Shown here piece by piece: positions 3,001-48,341 of a stretch of 61,519 nucleotides of DNA. How positions within the stretch are numbered: the stretch's first letter is position 1; every line of letters starts with the position of its first letter. The stretch is from positions 1 to 61,519 of the IMG/VR virus record IMGVR_UViG_3300042862_000334. One strand, written 5' to 3'. The notes under the pieces are model-generated. The model was not told the origin of the DNA and did no database searches. It worked only from the letters and a program-made list of their open reading frames with translations. This stretch comes from a virus. Its lineage: Duplodnaviria; Caudoviricetes. Both the position numbers and the translations under genes were made by a program.

Positions 3001-5931
3001 AGAGATTCAGAGGGTAACTTACTTAAAGGTATTAAGGAACACTACAATGAAAACTTACAAAAGTGGGTGGTGGAAATTGATAATACAGATGAAGGATTTT
3101 ATTCTTTATCAGAAGAACAAAAAACAAAAGTAGCTGAAATAGTTGGTCTTAATCAATTAGCTTACTTAAAACAAGATTTTTTCAAAAATAAAGAAGCTCA
3201 AGACTTAGAAAGATTTATAGCAGAAGTAGAGTCTTTACCTATGGAAGAGCAGTGGAAATTCATTGAAGAAAATGCTACGGTTTCTTATCCTAGAGAATAT
3301 TTTGACAACTTTAAAGAAAATCCTAATTTAGTCCAAAAACTAACAGCTTTAGGAACACAGGATGCTTTAGAAAAAGTAAGACAAATTAGAGCTAAAGAAT
3401 CTTTAAGAAATAAAGTTATGCGTGAAATCTCGGTTTACAATAAGCCAGGAGAAACTAACTTTGTTGAGATGCATTCGACGCAAAAAGAAACTATAAAACT
3501 AGCTCAAACAGAATTAGAAAATCTTTACAGCCAAGCTAAAAAACTTCTACCAAAAGACGAAGCAGAAAGAACAGAACTAAATATCGATTCAAGAGTAAAT
3601 GATGCTTACTTAAATCACTTGGAAGATAGTGGAGAAGATGAGTTAACATTTATTATGAATAATGTAACTTCAACAGGTTTATCTGCTATTGAGGGTATGA
3701 GAGCTATTTTGACAGGAAGTAAGTCTACCAACAAAACGTTCAATAAGTATTTTACAGATGATTTAATAAATGAAAGAGGAGAATTAACATCACAAGCAAG
3801 ACAAGCTCTTATTGAATATGGAAAAACTCGTCTATTACCATATCTAAGAAAAACAGAACCTTTAGGCTATACGCAAGCTAAAAACACACTGTCCGCTTCA
3901 GAGTTTATAAAAAGAACGGATTTAGTTTCTATTTCGCCAAACATATCTTACAATGAAAGAATTAATCAAGATGTAAATCAAGAGTATTTAGACAATAGAG
4001 ATGCGGGAAGACCACAAATAAAACAGTCTTGGATAGAGAAAGTACGTTCAGAGCAATATGACAACTTATTTAAAAACGGCGCAAATAAAGAGTTAAAAGA
4101 AGGATATGAAACTCTAAAAACTCTTATGAAAGAAGCTGTTGAAATGCAAGGACTTACAGGTAGAAGAGATATTTATATGAGACCACAAGTAAGAGCAACA
4201 GAAATTGAGCGTTTTACAAGATTAAGTCCAACAGCAATATCTCAAAATATTCAAGAGTTCTTCCAATTCCGACCTGAAGAAAAAGAATTAGGAGAGCAAA
4301 TTAGTCAGGGTATATACACAATACCTAATTACTATAATCAACGATTAGAAGACCCAAAAGAGGTGTCTAACAACTTCTTATATTCATATTCGATGTATTT
4401 TGTCAAGTCGGCGGAAAATAAAGCTAGAAGAGAGAATATCGGAGACATGTTCGTAATAGATGATGTTCTAACAGATACAAAGTTTGAAAGTAAAAGAGCA
4501 GACGCTACTCAAACCTATAAGATGTTTAAAAATTTCAAAGAATTCAATTTCTATGGAGTTCAAGAATCATTCTCCTATGAAATACCTATTATGGGTAGAA
4601 CTATTGACGTAGGTAAGGTTATGAAAGTACTTAATAATTTTGGGAAGAAGATTAATTTGACCACTTTTAGTGTGCCAATCACATCTTTAGGGCAAAGTTT
4701 TACAGCGAAGGCTATGGAAAGATTCATCGGTCAATACATAACACCAACCGCTTCAAATGAAGGAAATAAACTATTTAAGCAACATGCAACAGATGCTATG
4801 AAGGAGTCTATGGGATTTCAGTCTAAATCTTTCTTGAATGTTACACTTGAAGCACTTGGGCTTTACTCGTTAACTCACAGGCTAGAAGATTCACAATACA
4901 ACAAAGCAGGTAGAACTCTCTATAATGTAGGAAGTAAGTTACATGAGATAGCCAATTTCCCTGTTGTGCCAAGAGCTGTTCTAGGAATTATCTGTGATTA
5001 TAGATATGTTGATGGAAAGATAATGGATGAGAAAACATTTAAAAAGCTTAATAAACAAGGCAATTGGACAGACTATAAAATGTTGAAGGACGATTGGGCT
5101 TTAGCTATTAAAGACGGAGTTTTAGATTTTAACAATGAGACTTTTGTAAATGCTGTAAAAGATAAGGTTACATTAAGAGAAGGACAGTCTTTGGAAAGTT
5201 ACTTAGAAGATGTACGACTTAATATTTCAACAAGAGCTCTAGCTTTCGTTCAACAAATTGACTCACAAATCCCGCAACACCAAAAATCTGTTGCACAAAG
5301 AGATGCAAGAATTAATTTTTTCCTGTCACATCAAAATTGGCTTCTTTCAGCTTTACCTCGTAGATTCCGTAACAGAAGTTTTAGTTATGCAGAAGGGGAG
5401 TTTCAAGAAGGTAGTTGGCGAACTGTTTGGGAACTGATTAGAAATTCCAAGGGCAATCCTAGAAAAATGCAAGAACTTTACAAAAACATGGACGATTTTC
5501 AGAAGAAAAATATTGTAAGGGGCGGGATGGAATTAGCTTTTGCAAATGCATTAGCTTTAGTTGCACTAGTGTTAGCTAATTATAATGACGATGATGAAGA
5601 CCCTAACTATTTATTAGCAGTAGCAGATATGTTTGCAACTAGAATAGCTAACGAACAAATATCATCAACTGTAGCTTTACCTAATTCAATATATAAGGCA
5701 ATGAGTCCTAGTATTATGTTGAAGCAGAAGATGGAAGCATGGGTAAAAGTAAATCAACTGTTTGATAGCGAGAAACAAGGTAAGTATTTAGGAAATTTAG
5801 TACCGTTTTTTAGAGATATTACTCGTTTTCAAGACCCTATTGAATATCGTCAAAGTTATCAGTACCTACAGATGGATAATAAAGATGTACTATATAACTA
5901 TGCTTGGTCGTCAAATTTCCTAAAAGAATAG
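1..5931 (+). CDS. Giant phage virion-associated/ejection-type protein (5'-partial, >1976 aa)
   Basis: Frame is open from base 1 (SQLTPQEKQF...) into the 1956-aa ORF. It is largely helical/coiled-coil, with a zincin-like EETAHLIE...EILGKVIA segment and a hydrophobic stretch near the C-terminus, as in giant virion proteins of Bacteroidota phages. Function is inferred. Confidence 0.6.
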   Translation, partial: SQLTPQEKQFIASQKEWEKRMVREAIKEASLSGATSLRFPTPYTLSVIEGYIKGGGLTSTTAGDIIEYLGEDYIILNGSEDDGVRIIPVRNMTKVLIEDFEQLRAKGEVGEDEDIYDYYLGDIGEGVESSDGEYFYYNRNYRPQGLETIEQGSIDGATKETFDLSDLSETQQTVARKYEEIAEILKKEKPVEVVTDENGFDWYEAPITQEDTQNPVVAFSLSEESPTLKYQTQDGQVFSDYGQALRNTQGEDLEAGLNTTEGFKPLFTISTNTNINTTEGMINNLIKSDLLSGEKYIENGVNYYKPQGKSEAKQVANAQVVKDLLQQKFGVKAVKVSKDGFISIIEENKRENISLAGRTIKIADLHKMDFKELKDNFGEDTAINILANKEFLNASKQTTVSKQEFIPENELQEKLINLLKKFGIKTLAFEEYIKKYEIRNKLPINARALADLVNKVVAFKDGNIEEDDLLEETAHLIEASIPQEQKENILRNIHKTREWGQFSEQYKQIYATEEEVRKEILGKVIANSFKEQFQARNTNQTEDSIINKIKELVKEFFDRISAYFQDSFQKELDTLNKALYTNLMQETLQLDLGNAKGVFFNATEASPKIDNLKNKLDKMVEGLRQTTRELSKSATNSADRASLNIAEEALERGESVRAIATLTQLIDSQVNQINRSLENTKEGELPISAEENVVAQALKETMIPSLAEVSAKLNQKDPTEKALLNEVREVISKANTVFGKVTTARKATFNVMVDSMIEKYNMTDKEKAEYQNMINLALSGVQADTDFLHAHIGSLLLAKNPLLNMAGLITERMNLRKNTLAQPLVKKLVDAFGKFSNSDLLKLIDNKTGDLIQERDIELENKLKSAEKVKIANSILAEAGLEKRTDENTDFKEFFNNLEDNNLGVAFNAQYRQWEEDKINVFYFTEQYRKAMKIHPIKNFFEKGGTLTNEEISPNAIETDRALRGQSTQIRMNAKNGVLTKSDKAELKKVEKLRAELSNPRDSEGNLLKGIKEHYNENLQKWVVEIDNTDEGFYSLSEEQKTKVAEIVGLNQLAYLKQDFFKNKEAQDLERFIAEVESLPMEEQWKFIEENATVSYPREYFDNFKENPNLVQKLTALGTQDALEKVRQIRAKESLRNKVMREISVYNKPGETNFVEMHSTQKETIKLAQTELENLYSQAKKLLPKDEAERTELNIDSRVNDAYLNHLEDSGEDELTFIMNNVTSTGLSAIEGMRAILTGSKSTNKTFNKYFTDDLINERGELTSQARQALIEYGKTRLLPYLRKTEPLGYTQAKNTLSASEFIKRTDLVSISPNISYNERINQDVNQEYLDNRDAGRPQIKQSWIEKVRSEQYDNLFKNGANKELKEGYETLKTLMKEAVEMQGLTGRRDIYMRPQVRATEIERFTRLSPTAISQNIQEFFQFRPEEKELGEQISQGIYTIPNYYNQRLEDPKEVSNNFLYSYSMYFVKSAENKARRENIGDMFVIDDVLTDTKFESKRADATQTYKMFKNFKEFNFYGVQESFSYEIPIMGRTIDVGKVMKVLNNFGKKINLTTFSVPITSLGQSFTAKAMERFIGQYITPTASNEGNKLFKQHATDAMKESMGFQSKSFLNVTLEALGLYSLTHRLEDSQYNKAGRTLYNVGSKLHEIANFPVVPRAVLGIICDYRYVDGKIMDEKTFKKLNKQGNWTDYKMLKDDWALAIKDGVLDFNNETFVNAVKDKVTLREGQSLESYLEDVRLNISTRALAFVQQIDSQIPQHQKSVAQRDARINFFLSHQNWLLSALPRRFRNRSFSYAEGEFQEGSWRTVWELIRNSKGNPRKMQELYKNMDDFQKKNIVRGGMELAFANALALVALVLANYNDDDEDPNYLLAVADMFATRIANEQISSTVALPNSIYKAMSPSIMLKQKMEAWVKVNQLFDSEKQGKYLGNLVPFFRDITRFQDPIEYRQSYQYLQMDNKDVLYNYAWSSNFLKE

Positions 5932-16922: not shown

Positions 16923-16972
16923 AGTATTGATTTTATTAGTATTTTATTATAGTTGAGTATATATAATAGTTA
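16923..16972 (+). other. attI-like site of cassette array 1
   Basis: AGTATTGATTTTATT...TAGTTGAGTATATATAATAGTTA is shared with 41637-41686; identity stops right after the GTTA of the first cassette. Confidence 0.75.
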
Positions 16973-16981
16973 GCACCAATA

Positions 16982-17626
16982 CTACGAAACTGCACAACCG
17001 AGAACATATTGTCCTACATTTGGGTCAACGCAATTACGAATTATTTGGTCTTTTCTGTGTTTCATTTTATATTCTCGTAAATCAAAATAACCTTTTTCAG
17101 AACTTCCTCTTTGGTTGTGAGTTAATCCGTCTTTAATTTCAGTTTGTGGTATTTCAAAGTTTGCCCAAAATAAGTGTCTACCAAGTTTTGCAGTTGGTTT
17201 TACAAATGGTTCGTAATAAGGCTTTACATTTTCAACTACAAACTTTATATCTGTGTTCTTTGTAAAGTTCTGTAAAAAGGTTATTTCAGCCCACAATCTC
17301 ATATCAGGCATTACAGCATCGTAACTTCCGCTTTTACTTGCCATCATTCTTACTTTGCTATGGCTTTGGCAAGGTGGAGAACTCCATATAAAATCAAACT
17401 CTCTCCAATTTTTAGCCAAATAATCGTGTGCATCAGTAACTATTACATTATCGTTTGGGTGTAATTGCTTGTAAACATTTGCAATTTCTTCGTTGTATTC
17501 TATTGCAGTTACTTCTACATTTTCCCAATGTTTGCGGTTTCCTCCAATTCCAGCGTATAGGTTTAAAACCCGTACTGGTGCTAACATCGGTTTGGCAAAA
17601 TTGCCGTTTTCGTTTTCTTTTGACAT
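16982..17626 (-). CDS. C5-cytosine DNA methyltransferase (short form), cassette cargo
   Basis: Motif I VLNLYAGIGG, motif IV SPPCQSHS, motif VI VENV; start codon lies inside the attC-like site. Confidence 0.8.
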   Translation of the reverse strand: MSKENENGNFAKPMLAPVRVLNLYAGIGGNRKHWENVEVTAIEYNEEIANVYKQLHPNDNVIVTDAHDYLAKNWREFDFIWSSPPCQSHSKVRMMASKSGSYDAVMPDMRLWAEITFLQNFTKNTDIKFVVENVKPYYEPFVKPTAKLGRHLFWANFEIPQTEIKDGLTHNQRGSSEKGYFDLREYKMKHRKDQIIRNCVDPNVGQYVLGCAVS

Positions 17627-17696
17627 TTTATCTTAATTTAAACATTTGTAATTCTAATGAAGTTTTGTGTTCGGCAACTTCGCCAAGCCGTAGGCG

Positions 17697-17939
17697 TTAG
17701 GCAACATTTAAAGAAGCCCACCAAATATTAAACTTCTCCATAGCAATCTTTTCTGCATTTTTTCCACCGACACAATCTTCATAGTGATAAGGTGATTTAG
17801 TTTCTCCATCAGCGTGTCTTAATCCGCTTCTAATGCAGAAAAAACCAGCACCATCTGTAATTTCAAACCAATCTATCATTGTCATTCCAATCCCGAATTT
17901 AAATTCAGGTCGAAGTTTTAATATCTGTTTTTTAGTCAT
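17697..17939 (-). CDS. Hypothetical cassette protein
   Basis: Fills cassette 2; its TAA stop is the TTA of the GTTA core. Confidence 0.65.
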   Translation of the reverse strand: MTKKQILKLRPEFKFGIGMTMIDWFEITDGAGFFCIRSGLRHADGETKSPYHYEDCVGGKNAEKIAMEKFNIWWASLNVA

Positions 17940-18080
17940 AATAAACGTTGCCTAACAAAGTGTATAAGCAATAGCCGTTAGGCGTTTCAAACTATTGCAG
18001 TTGTTAATATTTAATTTTCTACATCTAATCAAGTTCTGTGTTCGGCTACTGCTCATACACTCGACCGTTATGTGTAATTG

Positions 18081-18893
18081 CTACCATTCCGTTCCAAATA
18101 AAGATTGCGCTTGTAAATCTTTTTCTTTTCTTTTTTCTTCCAACGCTTTTTTAATTCGTTCTTCAATCAAATTACAGTATTCATTTGATATTTCACTTCC
18201 AATCCAATTACGGTTGTTTAAAATACTCATTTTTGCAACTGTTCCGCTTCCCATAAAACAATCATAAACCAAATCACCTTCATTGCTCCAACTTAAAATG
18301 TGGTCATTTGCAAGTGCTTCTGGAAATACAGCAGGGTGTTCGCCTTTTTGTGGGGCTATATACCAATAGTTGTTTCTTCTGCTAAATTCCGCACTTGGTT
18401 TTCTACTCTCTATTTTATGTTCGCCAGTTACTAATCTTCTTCCTACTCCGCTTTTATCTTTGCCAAAAGAAGCATTTGGTTTGTCATAAATTAGATTTGT
18501 AGTATTTATTTTTCCTTTTGAAAACACGAACATATACTCAAAGTTTTGTGTATAGCATTTATTACTCCCTACTGCACCTCCACCATCTTTTATCCAAATC
18601 ATTGTGTCGTGTAAGTTGAATCCAATTTCTTTGAAATATAGTGCTTGTTTAAATGATGTTCCGCTTTCGTTTCCTTGAACAGTTGCATCCGAAATAACCC
18701 AAACTAATACCCCACCATCTTTGGTAATTCTAAACAACTCCTTTGCAATATCTTCAAAAGGGAAAGAATATCCATTGTAAGTTCTTAGTCCATCATAAGG
18801 TGGGCTTGTTACCGTTAAATCCACAAAGCAATCAGGCATCTTTGCCATTGTTTCTAAATTGCTTTCATTGTAATTCTTGTTTATATCAATCAT
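18081..18893 (-). CDS. N4-C/N6-A DNA methyltransferase (beta class), cassette cargo
   Basis: TSPPY precedes HPAVFP and DCFMGSGT; likely start is MIDINK at 18893. Confidence 0.85.
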   Translation of the reverse strand: MIDINKNYNESNLETMAKMPDCFVDLTVTSPPYDGLRTYNGYSFPFEDIAKELFRITKDGGVLVWVISDATVQGNESGTSFKQALYFKEIGFNLHDTMIWIKDGGGAVGSNKCYTQNFEYMFVFSKGKINTTNLIYDKPNASFGKDKSGVGRRLVTGEHKIESRKPSAEFSRRNNYWYIAPQKGEHPAVFPEALANDHILSWSNEGDLVYDCFMGSGTVAKMSILNNRNWIGSEISNEYCNLIEERIKKALEEKRKEKDLQAQSLFGTEW

Positions 18894-19086
18894 ATTTTTA
18901 AATTTTTCAAATTTATTTTTGCCATCGCTCAAAAAAGAAAAGAAAAAGTATTCCGTTTCAAATTGAACTTTCTGCTATTAAACCGCAACTACACATAACA
19001 AGGTATTTGCAAAATTGCCCACCAACATTTGTGCTTAATTTGAAGTATCTGCAAGGGCAACTTCGCAAATACCCAACCGTTATCAC

Positions 19087-19386
19087 TCAGCTTGGCGAGT
19101 CGGTTAAAAGAGATAACATTGCATCATATCCAAAAACCTGCTTTGTTGCTTCTTTTGTATCGTTTTCATCTGATTTTAGATTTAATGAATAGGAACTTCC
19201 GTAACAGGAAACCTTTTTATTTTCAGCATCTACTATACAAAATCCCGCAGAAACAGGATTTAAGTTTCTCATACTTGAATGCTCTACGAAACAAGGAAAT
19301 ATTATAATTCCGTTGTATTCTTTAATCTTAACATATTTTTGTTCTGTATTCATATTTAGTGGAATAAAAAGCCGAAGTGATAACAA
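19087..19386 (-). CDS. Hypothetical cassette protein
   Basis: Fills cassette 4; PVSAGF...GSSYSLNLKS pattern; start uncertain. Confidence 0.6.
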   Translation of the reverse strand: MLSLRLFIPLNMNTEQKYVKIKEYNGIIIFPCFVEHSSMRNLNPVSAGFCIVDAENKKVSCYGSSYSLNLKSDENDTKEATKQVFGYDAMLSLLTDSPS

Positions 19387-19523
19387 ATGATATAAAAGAT
19401 TTTCGGCTTGGTTTATAAATTTAATTTTTGGGTTTGTACTTTTTAATTTTGGTCTTAAACTGAAAGGTTCGGGATTTATCCTGCCGAAAAACCTCTCATA
19501 TCATCGACCGTTATAAGAAATAG

Positions 19524-19863
19524 CTACTTTACGTTTTCAATCAAATCTATTTCAACTCGATGTTTAGTATGTGAGTGATAAGAATAATTAGTCAATACTT
19601 GCGTTTCTGTTTTATAACCTAAACGGCTATCTTTTACCTTTTCAATTAATTCTTTTTCAAATTCATTTTCGGCGTGCAAAACTATCTTTGCTTTACCTTG
19701 CCATATTACTACCTCTGTTTTCATAATTCTATTTTGTTTATTTAGTTACTAATGTTGTTGCAAACCACATAAAGAATAATCTTGTATAGTTCTTACCGTT
19801 TACTTTATAAGTTGGAAATTTCTTAAAGCCCATCCATTGTGTGTGAAATTCTATTTTCATCAT
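19524..19863 (-). CDS. Two small cassette ORFs (19524-19724, 66 aa; 19738-19863, 41 aa)
   Basis: Both lie inside cassette 5; the second (MMKIEFHTQW...) was translated by hand. Confidence 0.5.
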
Positions 19864-19961
19864 ATTTAGTTTAAATTATCCGCTACTTCTTATAACAGCA
19901 ACTACAACTCACCAGCCGAAACTACTCACTGCATAGGCTGGCGTGATGTAGTTGCAAAACG

Positions 19962-20120
19962 TTAGAGCCGTTTAAGGGTGTTTACATTTACCGCAAAGAA
20001 TATTGCATTTACAACGATGTTGAGTATTCCGCTTGCAATTTTACCATCTACCAAAAAGTAAACACCCATACAAAATAGGATTACCTGAACAATCATTAGT
20101 GCTATTATGAACTTTCTCAT
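19962..20120 (-). CDS. 52-aa two-TM membrane peptide in the partial 6th cassette
   Basis: MRKFIIALMIVQVILFCMGVYFLVDGKIASGILNIVVNAIFFAVNVNTLKRL*; its stop is the TTA of the GTTA core. Confidence 0.55.
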   Translation of the reverse strand: MRKFIIALMIVQVILFCMGVYFLVDGKIASGILNIVVNAIFFAVNVNTLKRL

Positions 20121-40832: not shown

Positions 40833-41630
40833 TTAAATAGGCAAATTTATTTTACCTAAAGTTTTATTTGAAACGTGACAATAAATCTGAGTTGTTCTAA
40901 TGTTCTGATGTCCAGCTAATTGTCTTATTATTTGCAAATCTGTTCCTGATTCTAAAAGTGTTGTAAAACTACTATGACGTAGCAAGTGAAAATGATAGTC
41001 CTTACCTATATATTTTTTAACTATCTCGTTACAACTTCTGTGAGAATATTGCAGACCAAACTGCCCGTTAAACAAGAACTCTTTCGGTGTATACTCCTTA
41101 AAATATTCGCGTAAAAGATTTAAAACAACAGAAGATAAAGGTACAAACCTGTCCTTTCTTCCTTTACCGTTTTTAATTAAAATCAACATCCTTTTAGAAT
41201 CAATATCTTCTAATTTTAAATTACAAACTTCACTAACTCGCATCCCTGTAGAGAAAGCTAAAGTGATTATTGCTTTGTGCTTCAAATTCTCAATTTTTGA
41301 AATCTTATCTAACAAAAAATCTTTATCAATTACTCTTGGTAGTTTCTTTTCAGTTTTTGGTCTTTCTATTTTGTTTAGATGAACATCTTTTTTATTTAAA
41401 ATATATCGCGCAAAAAGCTTCAAACAACCAATAAACTGATTTTGTTGAGCAACAGATGAAAATTCCCTACTTTCAAGAAAACAAACAATGTCTTTAGTTG
41501 AAACTTTGTATGGGTCTTTACAATTTATTTCTTTTAGATATTGAAAAAGTACTTGTTTATAAACCTTAATTGTGTTTTGAGAATAGTTTTTATATCTCAA
41601 TTTATTTTCAAAAATTTCGAGAACTTTCAT
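40833..41630 (-). CDS. Tyrosine recombinase (XerD/IntI-related, no IntI-specific insertion)
   Basis: N-terminal YSQNTIKVY SAM-like domain; catalytic set GMRVSE, GKGRKDR, HLLRH, AGH, TTQIY. Start MKVLEIF is supported by the truncated paralogue. Confidence 0.92.
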   Translation of the reverse strand: MKVLEIFENKLRYKNYSQNTIKVYKQVLFQYLKEINCKDPYKVSTKDIVCFLESREFSSVAQQNQFIGCLKLFARYILNKKDVHLNKIERPKTEKKLPRVIDKDFLLDKISKIENLKHKAIITLAFSTGMRVSEVCNLKLEDIDSKRMLILIKNGKGRKDRFVPLSSVVLNLLREYFKEYTPKEFLFNGQFGLQYSHRSCNEIVKKYIGKDYHFHLLRHSSFTTLLESGTDLQIIRQLAGHQNIRTTQIYCHVSNKTLGKINLPI

Positions 41631-41636
41631 AGTTTG

Positions 41637-41686
41637 AGTATTGATTTTATTGATGTTTTTTATTAGTTGAGTATATATAATAGTTA
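41637..41686 (+). other. attI-like site of cassette array 2
   Basis: GTTGAGT (41666) and GTTATAAG (41683) are 17 bp apart with no hairpin; the core is identical to array 1. Confidence 0.75.
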
Positions 41687-41696
41687 TAAGCAAGTG

Positions 41697-42446
41697 CTAC
41701 ATTTCGTTTTCAAATAGAGATTGTGCTTGTAAATCTTTTTCTTTTCTTTTTTCTTCCCACGCTTTTTTAATACGTTCTTCTGAAATCTTGAAATAGTTTT
41801 CATCAAGTTCAACACCAATGTATTGTCTGTTTGATAATAAACTTGCAATACAAGTCGCACCCACACCCATAAAAGGTTCAAAAACTATTTCGTTTTCTTT
41901 TGATGAATTTTCAATTAGAATTTTCATCAACTCAACAGGCTTTTCTGTGTCGTGTAAATTTTTACCATCATCGTCTTTTGTTTTTTTATTTGGTATAGAA
42001 AGTATATCAGCAGTTCCACAATTATTTATTTTTACACCTGCACCTTTTCTAAAAAATAAGATATACTCAAATTGCGACATATAGTATTGACCCATTATCT
42101 TGTTTCCTTTATCCCATATAATTGACTTTATGAAGTGAAACCCTATATCAGTCAAAACATTAAGATATTCTTGCAGGTTTTTATGATTAGTCATTATATA
42201 GCAATGACCTGTTTCTTTTAGAACTTGATATAATTTTTCTCCCCATATTTTTACGTGAGTATCATTTTTTTCAAATACTTTACCTTTTTTATTAATATCT
42301 TTTTGCAACATTCCACCGCTATTTCCAGCACAACCTCTTGCAGTTGTTGGATATGGTGGGTCTGTTACAATTAAATCAACCTTATACTCCTTAGCAATCA
42401 TTCTATCTATTATTGCTATTGCATTATCATTAAATATTTTGTTCAT
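41697..42446 (-). CDS. N6-A/N4-C DNA methyltransferase (beta class), first cassette
   Basis: TDPPY, HDTEKP, EPFMGVG. Confidence 0.85.
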   Translation of the reverse strand: MNKIFNDNAIAIIDRMIAKEYKVDLIVTDPPYPTTARGCAGNSGGMLQKDINKKGKVFEKNDTHVKIWGEKLYQVLKETGHCYIMTNHKNLQEYLNVLTDIGFHFIKSIIWDKGNKIMGQYYMSQFEYILFFRKGAGVKINNCGTADILSIPNKKTKDDDGKNLHDTEKPVELMKILIENSSKENEIVFEPFMGVGATCIASLLSNRQYIGVELDENYFKISEERIKKAWEEKRKEKDLQAQSLFENEM

Positions 42447-42753
42447 TTTTCTTTATTTTTAAATTTTTATTTTCCCCGCACAAAAAAGAAAAGAAAAAGG
42501 TTTCGTCTTTCAAATCAAGTTCTGTGCTATAAAACCGCACCAGCTTATAACAGCGTGTATATGCAAGTGGTGGTTCTGTGGTTTATTCAACATTTGTTTT
42601 CTTATCAAACTTTCTACTGTATTGAAAGGTAAGTGCTTCTAATCACCACCTGACATATACACGCAAAACGTTATAAGTAACTTTAACCGAAGCTGTCCAA
42701 AAGATAATTCTGCTAAAAAGCTGTATAAATTTCTTTCTGCTTCGGAAAAGCTA

Positions 42754-43019
42754 CTATTTTTCTATAAAGTATGTATTTTTAAAAACTATATATGCTTTTC
42801 TATTCATAATAATTGTCTTTTCTCCGTACTTTTTACCCAACCATTCCACTATAAAAAATGGTAGTATTTTATAAATATTTCGTATCATAATTAAAAAGAT
42901 AAATCTTTGTTACTATTTTCTAAATCCTCTTTCAAACTTTCTAAAACTAACTCAATAATTTCAGATGGAATTTCTTCCCCATTTAAAAATTTTTCTTTAT
43001 AATCTTTTAAATATCCCAT
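42754..43019 (-). CDS. Two ~44-aa ORFs in cassette 2
   Basis: MGYLKDYKEKFLNGEEIPSEII... and MIRNIYKILPFFIVEWLGKKYGEK..., translated by hand; ends approximate. Confidence 0.45.
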
Positions 43020-43222
43020 AATAAAAGCTACTTATAACAGTGGTTTTGCTCAATGGCTATTTCAGGCAAAATTTATACACTGTTTTGTGTTTGTAAAATT
43101 TGTTTTTAATTCAATAATTTAGGATTGCTTTTCAGCCACTAAGCAAAGCCACGAAACGTTATAAGTAACCCTACGGGTCGCTATCGCTTACTTATAACAC
43201 GGGCTAAAACAAAATAAATTTG

Positions 43223-43435
43223 CTATCGTCCGTGCAAATATTCATCGTGGCGGTTTTCATAATCCACTTTTTTACTTTCGGTTTGTTTTGCTTCTTCAGT
43301 TTCTAATTCATAGCAGTATGAATGAAAGTTTGCGTTTCTAAATGTCATTGGAGATTCTGCATTAAAAGCAAAACCAGCATCGTAGTCGTGGATTTCTATT
43401 TTCTCTTTACAAACTTTACATTTCATAATCCGCAA
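43223..43435 (-). CDS. ~70-aa Cys/His protein nested in an attC-like loop
   Basis: CKVC...FHSYC; lies between hairpin arms 43200-43223 and 43432-43455. Confidence 0.6.
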   Translation of the reverse strand: MRIMKCKVCKEKIEIHDYDAGFAFNAESPMTFRNANFHSYCYELETEEAKQTESKKVDYENRHDEYLHGR

Positions 43436-43473
43436 ATTTTACTTCGTTTAGCCCGAAACCGTTAGCGGTAATA

Positions 43474-43710
43474 CTATGACAGTGCTTCAAATCTAATTCT
43501 GTGGTTATAAAAATCGCCATCTCCTCCAGCGTGTACAGCATATTTTTGACCATCGCCATTTTCAACTTCTGCATAAGTTCCATCTTCTAATGTAATTTGT
43601 GCTTCATCATCAAATCTTGCATAGAAATGTTTATTTTCATTTAAAAAAAATGCCATAGTATCGCTATTTGTTGGCATTGGCTCTATTGTTGAGAATCTAT
43701 AATCTTCCAT
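43474..43710 (-). CDS. Hypothetical cassette protein
   Basis: Fills cassette 4. Confidence 0.65.
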   Translation of the reverse strand: MEDYRFSTIEPMPTNSDTMAFFLNENKHFYARFDDEAQITLEDGTYAEVENGDGQKYAVHAGGDGDFYNHRIRFEALS

Positions 43711-43884
43711 TTTGTATGTTTTAAATTATTAATAATAAGTACTACCGCTAACAAGGGTTTTATGAAATTGGGGCTTCGGTGCTTAATTTTGGCTTTTGGT
43801 ATTCTATTGAACTTTGGTGCTTTATTCAACATTCGGTTTTCAAAAACCCCAACTTCATAAAGCCCCGAGACGTTATAAGCCATT

Positions 43885-44256
43885 TTAGGACGACACACCG
43901 TTAATAGAAAGTAAATTTTCCCAACCACAAGAAACATCATAACCTAAATCATCGGCTTGGTTTACAGTCAATGCTTTTAATTCAATTGTTTCAGTTGGTT
44001 CTTTTGGCATTTCTTTATAATCCCACCATTCCGAACCATCATACTCGCCTCTTTCAAGCCACCAATTTTCGCCAACCACTAATAAATCTTGTGCAACTTT
44101 AGATGAACCAAATCCACTTTCATAATCAACATCAGCAGTTTTTTTGAAATCTTCCCAAGTTGTTTTATGAGTTGAAGTTCCTACCCATTTTACATCAGTT
44201 TCTTTTTTGTTATTACTCTCTAATAATTCAAGAGTTTCTTTTAATAAATTGCTCAT
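43885..44256 (-). CDS. Conserved phage hypothetical cassette protein
   Basis: DYESGFG...WWLERGEYDGSEWW pattern. Confidence 0.65.
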   Translation of the reverse strand: MSNLLKETLELLESNNKKETDVKWVGTSTHKTTWEDFKKTADVDYESGFGSSKVAQDLLVVGENWWLERGEYDGSEWWDYKEMPKEPTETIELKALTVNQADDLGYDVSCGWENLLSINGVSS

Positions 44257-44391
44257 TGTTTTTTAATTATATTGTTACGCCAAACACGAATAAAAACGGC
44301 TTATAACAGTGGTTTGGCAAAATACCGCCACAAGCCTTTGTACTATAATTCAACATTTGTGCAAGGCGGTACTTCGCCAAGCCACCAAACG

Positions 44392-45051
44392 TTACAGGCA
44401 AGTGTTAGCACCCTGCACATCAACGACAGACTGCGGGATATTACGTTCCTGTTTACGTTCTTTCATTTGCCAATCGTAATCCAATAAATAGTTATGGCTG
44501 TTACCAATCAAATCATATTTGTCTTTACTAATTGACACTTTTAAAAAGGCTCTCATTCCACCTTTGGTAATTGGTGCAACTTTATGAATGTTAAATTGAT
44601 TAAGTCTTATAAGTTGATTTTCTTTGTAAGCAACATCATTAAATGGCATCGCTTGTTTTTCCATTTCTTCCATTGAAAGCAAATCGTCTAATGGCAAATC
44701 AAAATCTGTTTTATTAAAAATGGTTGGGTATTTGTCGCACCACACATAGTTAATATCATTAGTCAAAAAACCATCGCTATGCCATCCTGTTCTATTAAAA
44801 GAACAATTAGGCATTTGATAAAGAAATTTTGCAGTCAAATACACGTATGAATTTACATAATTATCCAAGCCAAATTCGCCAATAAAATCACAACATATTG
44901 CACCAATCAATTTATCAAAGCATTTTAATCGTGGCTCATAAATCGGTTGTGTTTCATTTGGCATTTTAATAGGTAAATATTGGTAGAACATCATTTCTTT
45001 ACATTCTACTTCAAATATTCCTAATTCCGTTGGTAGTTCACCGTATTTCAT
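44392..45051 (-). CDS. Putative 2OG-Fe(II) dioxygenase-like cassette protein
   Basis: GWHSDG (HxD), distal NIH, then RAFLKV. Confidence 0.5.
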   Translation of the reverse strand: MKYGELPTELGIFEVECKEMMFYQYLPIKMPNETQPIYEPRLKCFDKLIGAICCDFIGEFGLDNYVNSYVYLTAKFLYQMPNCSFNRTGWHSDGFLTNDINYVWCDKYPTIFNKTDFDLPLDDLLSMEEMEKQAMPFNDVAYKENQLIRLNQFNIHKVAPITKGGMRAFLKVSISKDKYDLIGNSHNYLLDYDWQMKERKQERNIPQSVVDVQGANTCL

Positions 45052-45353
45052 ATTGCATTGATTTTAACAGTTTCAAAAGTGTTTTCAAAAACGTAAAGGC
45101 ACAATTCCTGCATTATAAATAGTTTGCAAGTTCCCATATAATTAAGCCTTTCAAGTGGCGTTTTTATTGGTTGCCCTGTTTTATAAAATTCTAAACACCT
45201 TTTTTCTTTTGGGTGTTCTTCATCTGTTTCAACTATTGCCCACAGAAAAAACAATCCATCTACATCTTCAATGCGGATTATTTGAGCATCTTTTGGAAGT
45301 TCTATTGTGTACTTCTCTTTTGTTGGTATTGAGTATTTATATATTGCTTTCAT
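45048..45353 (-). CDS. Hypothetical protein, same cassette as the dioxygenase-like gene
   Basis: IYKY...LWAIV...TG...YMGT pattern; overlaps the next gene by 4 nt. Confidence 0.6.
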   Translation of the reverse strand: MKAIYKYSIPTKEKYTIELPKDAQIIRIEDVDGLFFLWAIVETDEEHPKEKRCLEFYKTGQPIKTPLERLNYMGTCKLFIMQELCLYVFENTFETVKINAI

Positions 45354-45523
45354 TACGAAAAATTTTAAAGATTAACCCACACCTGCCTGTAACATCGGTT
45401 TGCCAAAAGCTGGGCAGACGTAGTAAATTCAGCTTTTGTTCCTTTAATCGGCTTTAGTGCAAGGGGTGATCAGTTGTGCTTCTAATCCCAGCCTTCGGCA
45501 AGCCGTAGCCGTTAGCATCAATG

Positions 45524-45739
45524 CTACAATTTGTTTTCAAAAGATATTTTAGGCTCTTTTGGAATTGGAATTTTCATAACGTGGGTTGGCACTTTTCTGC
45601 CACAAAAACCGTAATTAAAAGAAAAAGTATTTTTTAAAAACTTTGCTTTTTTAACTTTGTTGTCCATAAAAATATAACAATCAAAATCAGTTTCTTTTTC
45701 AAAATCGAATTTATCTATTTCAATCCATCTGCAATTCAT
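45524..45739 (-). CDS. DUF551-like cassette protein
   Basis: WIEI...PTHVMKIPIP. Confidence 0.5.
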   Translation of the reverse strand: MNCRWIEIDKFDFEKETDFDCYIFMDNKVKKAKFLKNTFSFNYGFCGRKVPTHVMKIPIPKEPKISFENKL

Positions 45740-45907
45740 AGTATTTCAGTTTTAAGAACCGCACTAATGCTAACACATGTTTGTGTCAATAGCTACGGCA
45801 GTTATTAATTTAATGTTTTGCGTTTTCTTTTATGTTCAGTCTTAAACCGAAACGATAGTGTGTGTCAGAACGCTACTGAACACAAGCACTCGGAAGTTAT
45901 GTGAGAT

Positions 45908-46081
45908 TTACTCGTCAGAAGTATCAAAATTAAAATCATCTTCTTCTTCTACTATAACTTCTCCTTTATATGAAAAAGAAACAGAAGGAGAACCACAACA
46001 ACCACAACCACCTACTGACATTTGTATATCATTAGCCTTTAAAATTTCTTTTACTTTTTTAATTCTTTCTTCTATTCCCAT
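45908..46081 (-). CDS. 57-aa cassette protein with GGCGCCGSP motif
   Basis: MGIEERIKKVKEILKANDIQMSVGGCGCCGSPSVSFSYKGEVIVEEEDDFNFDTSDE*, translated by hand. Confidence 0.6.
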   Translation of the reverse strand: MGIEERIKKVKEILKANDIQMSVGGCGCCGSPSVSFSYKGEVIVEEEDDFNFDTSDE

Positions 46082-46229
46082 TTTGTTTTAATTTAAAAAC
46101 CTCACATAACAGCATATTACCGCTATGGCTTGGCTTTGGTTAATCCGAAATGTGTCGGCTCACTTTTTGTTTGTTGTTTATTTGTTGTCGTTTGTGTTCA
46201 AATACGCCACATAGTTAATATGCATAACG

Positions 46230-46481
46230 TTATAAGCAAGGTGGCTTTGGAAGTTCCATCCACCAAGTTTCATCTACATTACAATACTTTACCATTGAAG
46301 TTTCGTGTATAGAAATTGCCAAACTTTCTTGGCTATCATTCATTATTCTATAAATCAAAACTTTGTTACCGTTTTGTTCTACTGATGGCAATTTCTCCGA
46401 AGCCGCCACCCAGCTTATAACAGCACCTATATTCAATTGCGGTTTTTGTGGTTCATTCAACTTTTGTTCTTCTATTTTCAT
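46230..46481 (-). CDS. DUF551-like cassette protein starting inside the attC loop
   Basis: WVAASEKLP...WWMELPKPP; likely start is MKIEEQ at 46481. Confidence 0.6.
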   Translation of the reverse strand: MKIEEQKLNEPQKPQLNIGAVISWVAASEKLPSVEQNGNKVLIYRIMNDSQESLAISIHETSMVKYCNVDETWWMELPKPPCL

Positions 46482-46550
46482 TTGTTCTAAATTTAAAGTT
46501 TTCGTTTTTAAAGTCCGCAACTAAATATAGCTGCATCACGTTGGCAGTAA

Positions 46551-46820
46551 TTATTTGAAGAACTCGCTAAATTCAACAAGCCTTAATCCTTCTGCTTTTT
46601 GATATTCGGAACTTCCAGTACTACCAGTTGAAAAAAAACTTTCATAGTCTGCGTAAACTACTACTGCTGTTTCCGTTGTTGCCATTTGTGGTACAAAATC
46701 TAAATATAAATTTTCAGCACCTAAAAAATCTTTTACTTTATCAAACTCTTTTTTATCTCTAATAATAATTGATAATCCTTTGTAATCCATCACGTTTAGT
46801 ATTATAACTACTGCTAACAA
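46551..46820 (-). CDS. Hypothetical protein of the last cassette
   Basis: Fills cassette 10; start uncertain (46790 or 46820). Confidence 0.55.
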   Translation of the reverse strand: MLAVVIILNVMDYKGLSIIIRDKKEFDKVKDFLGAENLYLDFVPQMATTETAVVVYADYESFFSTGSTGSSEYQKAEGLRLVEFSEFFK

Positions 46821-46880
46821 CGGCTATACAATAGTTGGGTTAATTGTTTAATTTAAAGTCTGTTTTGTTTCATATCTTAT

Positions 46881-47039: not shown

Positions 47040-47102
47040 ATCTTATTTATTTTTCTTTTATCCAATTATAGCATCACTTCCTAATAGTAGTCTTTTCATA
47101 TC

Positions 47103-48341
47103 TTATTTGTTTTTAAATTGTTTAAAGAATTGTTTAATTTTTTCTTCCCTAATTAATCCTTGCATACCTCTATTATCTAATAAAAATTTGTCAAATTCAT
47201 TAATCATCACTATAACTTCTTCATCACTATACATTTTCTTGTCTTGTTCTTGTTTTTTAAGAAGATACTCTATTGCTTTTTCTAGTGTTTTTACTCTATC
47301 ATCATTAAAGAATTGTTCAGGCTCTTGTTGCCATTTAGCACCTGTTAAAAAAGCAGATTGTAAATAACCACTAATATCATAATCATTTACTATTTCTTCT
47401 TCTCCATAAAATCTTTCAGCAACTTCTTCAAGTGTTTCTTTTTTCATAACTTATTTCTTTTTAAATTGTTCAAACCATTCCTTTGGTAACATTGGAATTT
47501 TAAGTATTTTTTCAGCAGAACACATCAAGCAGTAATCTGCGTATTTATCCATGTAACTATACATCCTTTCCTCTTGCCATTCAGCTCCAGCTATAAAATA
47601 GTGACGTGATATTTCCGCAGCATTCACTTTTTGTTTTGGTGCTACTTCAATAAAGTTATCAGGTATCGCTCTTTTAGCTGCTTCTTCAAGTGTTTCTTGT
47701 TCAAGTTCGTATGAATACTTTTCTAAACCTTGTTGCTCATATTCTTTAACTGATTGTTTAGGTTCTTCTTTTTTACTAAACATAGAATTAGCAATAGACA
47801 TAATATTTATTGAATTTTCAATAGAATCTTCAAATTTAGTTTCTTCTTTTGGAATAATTATCATATATTCATAAGGACTATGTATTTCTTTAAAACTTCT
47901 AAACTTTTCAACTTCAACAAACTCACAACTCGGATGAGCCACAAACCACTCTAAAAAATCATTATCAATAGCTTGTACACCATCTTTGATTAAGTCTTGG
48001 TCTGTTGTTAGGATGATTTCTCTTATATGATTATAATTCCAAATATCTTGTTTATTTGACCATTCAATTCCAATTAATTTACAAGAACCTTTAAAAAATC
48101 TATTTTTACAAGTTAGTTTACCAATATTTCCATTTTGAACATCAATAACATAAATTGATTTTGTTAAATTTTCTTCTTTTATTTCTTTATCTGAAGTAAT
48201 GCAGATGTTTTGAGGTTTAACATACGCAACACCTGTTCTAGCAAATTTATCAAATATTAAATAATGTTTTCGTCTTGTTGATAACCATAACCTACTTGGT
48301 TTATCTGTTGGTATTACCCATAAATTTCTTTTTTGTTCCAT
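47103..48341 (-). CDS. Two hypothetical proteins sharing the ETLEE(V/A)A...GA(K/E)WQ(Q/E)E...FEQFK module (47103-47447, 47451-48341)
   Basis: Module is visible in both translations. Confidence 0.6.

Follow-up and report, generated by a model that had tools for sequence, protein, structure and literature searches.

Can a mobile gene cassette carry its gene inside the hairpin loop of its own recombination site? The question is raised by a locus in the genome of an uncultured phage (Duplodnaviria; Caudoviricetes), where an inverted repeat that encloses no open reading frame (ORF) is followed by a pair of hairpin arms that encloses one. The original prediction, made from the letters of the DNA, described positions 43158 to 43463 as an inside-out cassette with an empty 41-bp body and its gene in the hairpin loop, and suggested that genes can be captured on either side of a dumbbell-like single-stranded circle. 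The window analyzed here is the whole of IMG/VR record IMGVR_UViG_3300042862_000334, 61,519 bases of linear DNA with about 29% G+C, and the phage record is estimated to be ~43% complete. Almost all genes of the window are carried on the - strand, and phage genes for a DNA polymerase, a DnaB-like helicase, exonucleases and a large virion protein were recognized. The source runs with matching DNA are lake-water metagenomes. Searches of cultured phages for near-identical DNA gave nothing of substance and no close cultured relative, and Rfam and tRNA scans across the window returned no match.

The locus comprises the following features:

43159..43461, + strand: predicted inside-out cassette, 303 bp, starting with the TT of one GTT box and ending with the G of the following box
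43158..43198, no strand assigned: 41-bp "empty body" module, made of a GTT box, 19 nt and a complementary AAC box
43196..43463, + strand: long attC-like site, 268 nt, consisting of AAC, a 1-nt spacer, an arm, a 208-nt loop, an arm, a 5-nt spacer and GTT
43200..43223, + strand: left arm of the long site, 24 nt
43432..43455, + strand: right arm of the long site, 24 nt
43223..43426, - strand: loop-borne gene, 67 aa, with the pattern CxxC...HSxC, supported by homologues and dN/dS, its function unassigned by Pfam and PHROG

All of the elements first described from the letters are present where they were placed. The box GTTATAAGTAA (43158-43168) and the box TTACTTATAAC (43188-43198) are perfect reverse complements separated by 19 nt, with no ORF inside. 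The two arms that follow are 79% complementary without gaps and stand 208 nt apart; on the minus strand their pairing is nearly full when one bulge per side and two G.T pairs are allowed. The left arm finds its best partner within 2.5 kb in the right arm (-23.3 kcal/mol, with the runner-up at -17.1), which answers the concern that the arms might pair better elsewhere, and in the identical copy found on contig L002 no nearer partner beats -12.4 for either arm. Pairing energy alone is a weak criterion, given that 17 of 239 ordinary left arms have a distant partner at -20 or below, mostly the arm of a neighbour. When the 303-nt unit is folded alone, either strand closes the loop by means of the arms. 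In the context of three cassettes (871 nt) the arms still close the loop and none of 20 shuffled sequences folds as well, with the module halves now pairing with neighbouring R boxes and not with each other. The arm pairing of the long site exceeds chance.

The long site shares its AAC and GTT triplets, arm motifs and spacers with the other 12 sites of the window and with 310 sites in related loci. Family motifs are borne on both arms, the fixed mismatch positions are also common to the family, and the spacer asymmetry is that of ordinary sites. Judged by these features, 43196-43463 is a genuine member of the attC-like hairpin family. Because a left-type and a right-type arm stand in their proper order, a deletion between neighbouring sites could not have yielded it.

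The ORF in the loop (43223-43435, - strand) codes for 70 aa when read from a TTG and for 67 aa from the ATG at 43426. With this ATG 5 nt past one arm and a stop codon that shares 1 nt with the other, the ORF fills 204 of the 208 loop bases, in line with the predicted ~70-aa ORF in a loop of ~210 bp. The 67-aa protein contains the motifs CKVC and HSYC. Eight full-length homologues (63-99% identity) and one fragment of 41 aa were identified, the whole set ranging over 63-100% identity, with relatives of the gene encoded at four metagenome loci, and dN/dS was 0.11 against the version in L003 and 0.09 against that in L005. The gene is conserved and, with ratios of ~0.1, is under purifying selection; lack of conservation would have counted against the original prediction. 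Neither a Pfam nor a PHROG family was found for the protein, the AlphaFold2 model has a mean pLDDT of 69, and the Atlas matches were viral hypothetical proteins only. No relatives of the loop ORF were found among viral contigs. The most distant relative, in L005, has 67% amino-acid identity; there the gene is found in an ordinary phage context and the arms are absent. This copy (4001-4219 of a 25.8-kb contig) overlaps the end of the upstream ORF and is located outside any cassette.

Whether body and long hairpin belong together can be read from related contigs. Metagenome contig L002 has 100% identity to the window over 43156-43464 exactly, with unrelated flanks on both sides and with the boundaries at GTT boxes of the + strand, which makes the 303-bp piece a discrete unit; body (41 bp) and long hairpin belong to a single unit, as the inside-out description had it. 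Contigs L003 (94%) and L004 (78%) retain the order AAC, arm, ORF, arm, GTT, followed by a short GTT...AAC palindrome. In L004 the changes are paired, with a G missing in one arm and a C missing in the other, and an extra T pairs with the base that is bulged in the window version. The neighbour at the GTT side of the long hairpin differs in each of the four (the window, L002, L003 and L004). Contigs assembled from four other runs span the same junctions, among them contigs from X3 (43211-43527), X17 (43185-43382) and X2 (43372-44305).

A broader comparison of the loci yielded 95 high-identity blocks, of which 15 left and 32 right ends fall within 8 nt of the GTT end of a hairpin; at the AAC start the corresponding numbers are 0 left and 4 right, and the remainder lie away from the listed sites. 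The AAC side thus accounts for 4 of the 51 mapped ends and the GTT side for 47. Sequence comparison of this kind shows junctions that are biased to the GTT side. The 29-bp and 41-bp palindromes lie wholly within shared units and are therefore not the crossover point.

The locus is part of the second of two arrays, called A and B, for which the main features are:

41684..46830, + strand: array B, with an attI-like box, nine hairpins and an orphan left arm at 46816
41684..41697, + strand: attI-like GTT box with no hairpin before it, by the 5' end of the recombinase gene and at the start of array B
40833..41630, - strand: short Xer-type tyrosine recombinase, 265 aa from ATG, the presumed cassette recombinase
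41697..42446, - strand: N6/N4 DNA methyltransferase, cargo of the first cassette (Pfam N6_N4_Mtase, 1.5e-35)
AAC at 42549, 43036, 43196, 43750, 44305, 45391, 45772, 46108 and 46419, + strand: the hairpins of array B, from the AAC...GTT scan
43036..43160, + strand: ordinary attC-like hairpin of 125 nt (-25.2 kcal/mol) that ends the preceding cassette
43474..43710, - strand: 78-aa ORF from the ORF list, ordinary body cargo of the next cassette (43462-43872)
43750..43874, + strand: ordinary attC-like hairpin of the next cassette
16969..19963, + strand: array A, with five hairpins (AAC at 17583, 17954, 18997, 19382 and 19894)

A scan for AAC...GTT with complementary flanks gave 13 hairpin sites and one orphan arm in the two arrays. 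Read on the + strand, the sites have a common anatomy of AAC, 0-1 nt, an imperfect arm, a loop, a second arm, 4-5 nt and GTT. Imperfect AAC...GTT hairpins with paired R and L boxes, as found at the 13 sites and in the orphan arm, are a likeness to integrons. In both arrays the sites are chained, in that what follows each GTT is complementary, in reverse, to what precedes the next AAC. The post-GTT bases belong to the next cassette and pair with its own AAC box, again as in integrons, and this complementarity is the mark of integron cassettes for which the cut lies at G|TT. Junctions at G|TT are likewise indicated comparatively by the chains, the block ends (47 against 4) and the L002 copy. The box GTTATAAGCAAGTG, which has no hairpin, is nearly the reverse complement of the bases preceding the AAC of the first hairpin at 42549, and the methyltransferase gene 41697-42446 lies between this box and the hairpin 42549-42672. 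A hairpin-less, attI-like box by a divergently placed tyrosine recombinase gene is a further likeness, as is the fact that one strand folds better than the other.

At the far end of array B, the orphan left arm (46816-46860) has a proper AAC box and a chain match; no right arm for it was found within 2.5 kb, the best candidate reaching -13.5. A similar left arm in L023 has a candidate right arm 742 nt off. Array A has no recombinase alongside and contains two methyltransferase cassettes, whose cargo is a dcm-like fragment (16982-17626) and an N6 adenine methyltransferase (18081-18932). Together with 41697-42446 this makes three methyltransferases carried as cassette cargo in the phage.

All cassette ORFs in the window are on the - strand and point at the recombinase gene. 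Among the loci with at least three chained sites, taken from 80 kept of 99 loci with relatives of the recombinase, the chained sites are opposite to the recombinase strand in 37 and on the same strand in 8. This polarity and the GTT-side boundaries make the + strand the "top" strand in integron terms and place the genes on the "bottom", which means that each hairpin stands ahead of its own gene. Integron ORFs, in contrast, are on the top strand and point away from attI/Pc. With DNA parameters, it is the - (gene-sense) strand that gives the more stable arm duplex at 261 of 310 distinct sites.

The recombinase has the Pfam domains Phage_integrase and Phage_int_SAM_4 and is closest in sequence to XerA, XerC and XerD. 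Its best NCBIfam match is XerA, under the cut-off, and the integron-integrase models score well below theirs (TIGR02249 at 140 bits against a cut-off of 265, NF011946 at 96 against 435). Archaeal XerA (4a8e) aligns in one piece from end to end, whereas Vibrio IntI4 (2a3v) aligns in two pieces with ~48 IntI4 residues skipped. The break falls at IntI4 residues 181-260, where 30 residues of the query face 78, and we take the skipped residues to be the integron-specific insertion. An integron has an IntI-clade integrase with the IntI extra domain, and the recombinase of array B is not of this kind. The closest recombinases of cultured phages are integrases of Polaribacter and Cellulophaga phages, which at 33-38% identity are uninformative. 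From its adjacency to the array we infer that this enzyme catalyzes cassette exchange.

Likeness to Xer does not extend to the DNA site. Xer recombinases act on a double-stranded site of ~28 bp, made of two 11-bp half-sites and a central region of 6-8 bp. The recombinase is nearest to XerA/XerC/XerD, yet no dif-like site is present at the cassette junctions; a junction consists of the foot of a hairpin, arm plus 5 nt, and its other side is a cassette-specific R box instead of an inverted half-site. The phage sites also differ from attC in detail, having a one-sided bulge of 4-5 nt and fixed mismatches where attC has a symmetric, unpaired central spacer and extrahelical bases. The phage system is integron-like, yet it departs from integrons in the IntI insertion, in gene orientation and in the fine structure of attC. 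With at least two attC-type sites and no IntI-type integrase by NCBIfam thresholds, arrays A and B correspond to the definition of a CALIN.

A further difference from attC is a terminal loop of 208 nt that holds a whole gene, and its recurrence was surveyed in 266 distinct, non-overlapping sites from the window and related loci, all with an arm energy of -20 or below. Most (245) are no longer than 160 nt, 6 are 161-200 nt and 15 exceed 200 nt. Since energy alone is unsafe, as the 17 decoys among 239 left arms indicate, a long site was accepted as robust only if it exceeded 200 nt and neither arm had a nearer partner; 12 were kept and 3 dropped. Long-hairpin detection is noisy in that palindromic sites are found on both strands and weak candidates are plentiful. 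Sites in L067, L041 and L027 (at 7531) were rejected for nearer partners of -17 to -19 kcal/mol, and L072 was set aside as an inside-out case for a left arm with an equally good partner at 126 nt. Other loop-borne ORFs, the existence of which the original prediction had left to be checked, were indeed found: among the 12 robust long loops of the 266 sites, 8 contain a complete ORF of 67-181 aa, 3 have one that begins inside the loop and continues through the arm, and 1 has no evident ORF.

The bodies of these cassettes are short. All 10 that could be measured are 23-121 nt long, compared with a median of 295 nt in 221 ordinary cassettes, of which 3% have a body below 130 nt. A full loop goes with an empty body. 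In the 161-200-nt class, ORFs have their start in the loop and extend across the GTT into a body of ~100 nt, which makes for a continuum from body cargo to loop cargo. In L015, L033, L013, L027 and L034, with hairpins of 186-200 nt, the ORF from the loop crosses the arm and the GTT core, so that the recombination site is translated. Recurrence of the layout in related phages makes it a regular design and not an accident.

Cassettes with cargo on neither side were also encountered. In L066 (10851-11004, - strand) and L072 (3299-3453, - strand), a 29-bp body is joined to a hairpin of ~125 nt with no ORF on either side, and the blank cassette of L066 comes directly after an attI-like box. The 104-nt body of one cassette in L077 and the loop of L072 looked tRNA-like by eye and were dropped when neither ARAGORN nor Rfam made a call. 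A DUF551 match was obtained above the Pfam cut-off for the loop ORF of L077 (45 bits) and below it for a body-cargo ORF of the window, 46230-46415 (20.5 against 22); one family in both slots is a lead only.

The 41-bp module is itself a conserved element and is found beyond this locus. Abundant contigs in two runs match the module only and then enter a different arm. A pattern search located it in 13 viral contigs and 2 MAG contigs, and the likeness starts exactly at GTT and stops exactly at AAC. One of the 15 contigs is cut off; in each of the 14 assessable ones a hairpin of 203-420 nt comes after the module and has arms and an ORF (46-107 aa) of its own, which reads through past the arm in 2 of the 14. 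The two MAG contigs, L099 and L100, are short, carry the module and a long hairpin, and were binned to a Flavobacteriia MAG and a Pseudomonadota MAG respectively; they probably derive from phages, and their binning does not point to a host. Read on the - strand, the window module contains stops in all three frames (two TAA within the GTT box and one TAG within the 19-nt centre). In L089 and L094 the module-linked ORFs run from the loop into the module, and some variants are without the third stop.

Two of the shells invite direct comparison. L092 and L095 have in common 45 nt at the 5' end, up to and including the ATG, and 33 nt at the 3' end, beginning with the stop codon, and enclose different ORFs of 46 and 80 aa. 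Differences in cargo between shells were judged from ORF lengths, from the translations as read and from Pfam, global-alignment identity of the loop middles being uninformative in AT-rich DNA. A second type of module, of 29 bp, has a stem of 9 bp that covaries and a loop of 11 nt that stays constant, and it stands before four long and two ordinary hairpins. It corresponds to an ordinary cassette reduced to its two conserved ends, joined to each other, and in L072 these ends are split by a cargo of 78 nt. A model with crossover at G|TT only does not predict a module that occurs with 14 other hairpins and whose likeness ends at AAC. The comparison suggests that re-assortment of modules would call for an additional, less frequent crossover on the AAC side, or for another form of exchange, for example by short homology.

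Our main reading, to which we give a probability of roughly 0.7, is that the 303-bp piece is a genuine and mobile gene cassette, belonging to an integron-like system that the phage carries, with its gene in the terminal loop and not between the two R boxes. On the + strand an ordinary cassette reads TT-xxxxx, cargo on the - strand, xxxxx-AAC, arm, short loop, arm, G. A single-stranded circle of the 303-nt cassette would be a dumbbell, with one continuous helix and a loop at each end; the helix would consist of the R stem, the one-sided bulge of 4-5 nt and the arm stem, and cargo would fit into either loop. The R stem, the bulge and the base of the arm stem would be the constrained part. The Xer-type recombinase would recognize this folded core on the - strand, which is the gene's sense strand, and exchange strands at AA|C (G|TT on the + strand), after the manner of integron integrases. 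The length of the terminal loop would be irrelevant to the enzyme as long as the arms can meet in single-stranded DNA. The cassette would presumably fold in vivo and be excised as a circle. Among the joints in assembled contigs, where rare forms do not show up, none listed goes back at this cassette or corresponds to its circle, its deletion or an empty site, and this is no evidence either way. Since the layout recurs with other genes, cargo can occupy either side of the dumbbell. The proposal that genes are captured on either side holds as far as two-sided cargo is concerned, and for capture it stays a proposal.

Several features of the locus could be expected of something other than a cassette. 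The hairpins might be conserved intergenic linkers, in other words terminator or promoter stem-loops, with the genes shuffled by homologous recombination and the inside-out unit being a gene between two halves of a linker. The PeSL elements of T4-type phages are stem-loops of this kind. One shell with different cargo (the 45 nt and 33 nt common to L092 and L095), a module likeness that stops at both GTT and AAC, and genes that are all co-directional with phage transcription would be at home under this explanation. It is nevertheless unlikely in view of the variable 5-8 bases after the GTT, which in each cassette complement those before its own AAC; this would be expected of a fixed crossover in a folded site and a circular intermediate, and not of homologous exchange. 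Block ends that cluster within 8 nt of GTT point the same way, as does the fixed polarity (37 loci against 8) with which a tyrosine recombinase is placed by the array end that has no hairpin.

Arm pairing might instead act mainly at the RNA level, where arms enclosing an ORF in the mRNA would form a stem for processing or translation control and the likeness to recombination sites would be secondary. The strand bias in folding fits such a role too because the favoured strand (261 of 310 sites) is the mRNA strand, and the ATG 5 nt past one arm and the stop codon in the other would suit it as well. DNA-level features, namely the AAC/GTT triplets, the complementarity of the R boxes and the mobility of the unit, speak against it, no Rfam match was found, and an empty body whenever the loop is full is left unexplained; as the main function we consider it quite unlikely, though roles in DNA and RNA are compatible. 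Far less probable is an accident or artefact, be it an inverted repeat that arose by chance, an assembly error or a pair of half-sites that a deletion left behind. Ungapped arm complementarity is just 79%, and distant decoy partners are not rare in the arrays (17 of 239). Against this, the layout is preserved in three independent contigs (100%, 94% and 78% identity), with paired changes that preserve or improve the pairing, and the left-type and right-type arms are correctly ordered. The layout copies, together with the contigs of runs X3, X17 and X2 that span the junctions, largely refute it.

The cassette reading permits a further and more doubtful step. We put forward, as a tentative possibility that we hold to be improbable on balance, that the hairpin loop serves as a further slot for cargo, one that can be exchanged separately. 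Blank dumbbells would be loaded with genes between the arms of shells that are themselves conserved, the boundaries of exchange would fall at start and stop codons as in L092 and L095, and gene-bearing hairpins would be re-assorted among R-side modules by AAC and GTT crossovers. The origin of integron cassettes is a long-standing open question. If the second slot were real, a new cassette would arise when a gene enters a pre-existing empty dumbbell, and not when a site is added to a gene.

To our knowledge, in all described cassettes the gene stands next to the recombination site, and search tools expect the terminal loop to be short. The default upper limit of IntegronFinder is ~200 nt. A gene inside the folded site would mean that only the core of R stem, bulge and arm is constrained, and sites of 200-800 nt would still be exchangeable in the loop-cargo family. 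Current surveys would miss such loop-cargo cassettes or mis-parse them. In the open-access literature we found no description of whole genes in attC loops, nor of an Xer-type phage cassette platform. The variable terminal structure of attC is given as 20-100 nt in a passage of Cury et al. (2016, PMC4889954), and passages of a review (PMC8876359) mention only short ORFs within attC. Qi et al. (2023, PMC9892861) describe attC-type sites and cassettes from phages, among them phages that infect Bacteroidota (Polaribacter), and also note DNA methyltransferases as cassette cargo in phages. Section 3.4 of that article makes no mention of an adjacent Xer-type recombinase, of reversed orientation as a rule or of loop genes.

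The small accessory cargo and the neighbouring DNA methyltransferases indicate that the system probably serves phage adaptation to host defences. With a short Xer-type recombinase, blank cassettes and loaded loops, it also offers a test system for cargo acquisition and for the effects of loop length.

Two observations concern the surroundings of the cassettes in run X17. Just past array B, at 47076-47500, contig depth in this run reaches ~1200 with many joints, and one joint goes back from 47474 to 47218; the segment is an element that is repeated or widely shared. Contigs from the same run skip 42683-43016 and 43476-43737, both of them cassette bodies, with sides of only 21-24 nt and the intervening letters not given. 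These skips may represent the same cassette ends around other cargo, or none, in more abundant relatives of the phage.
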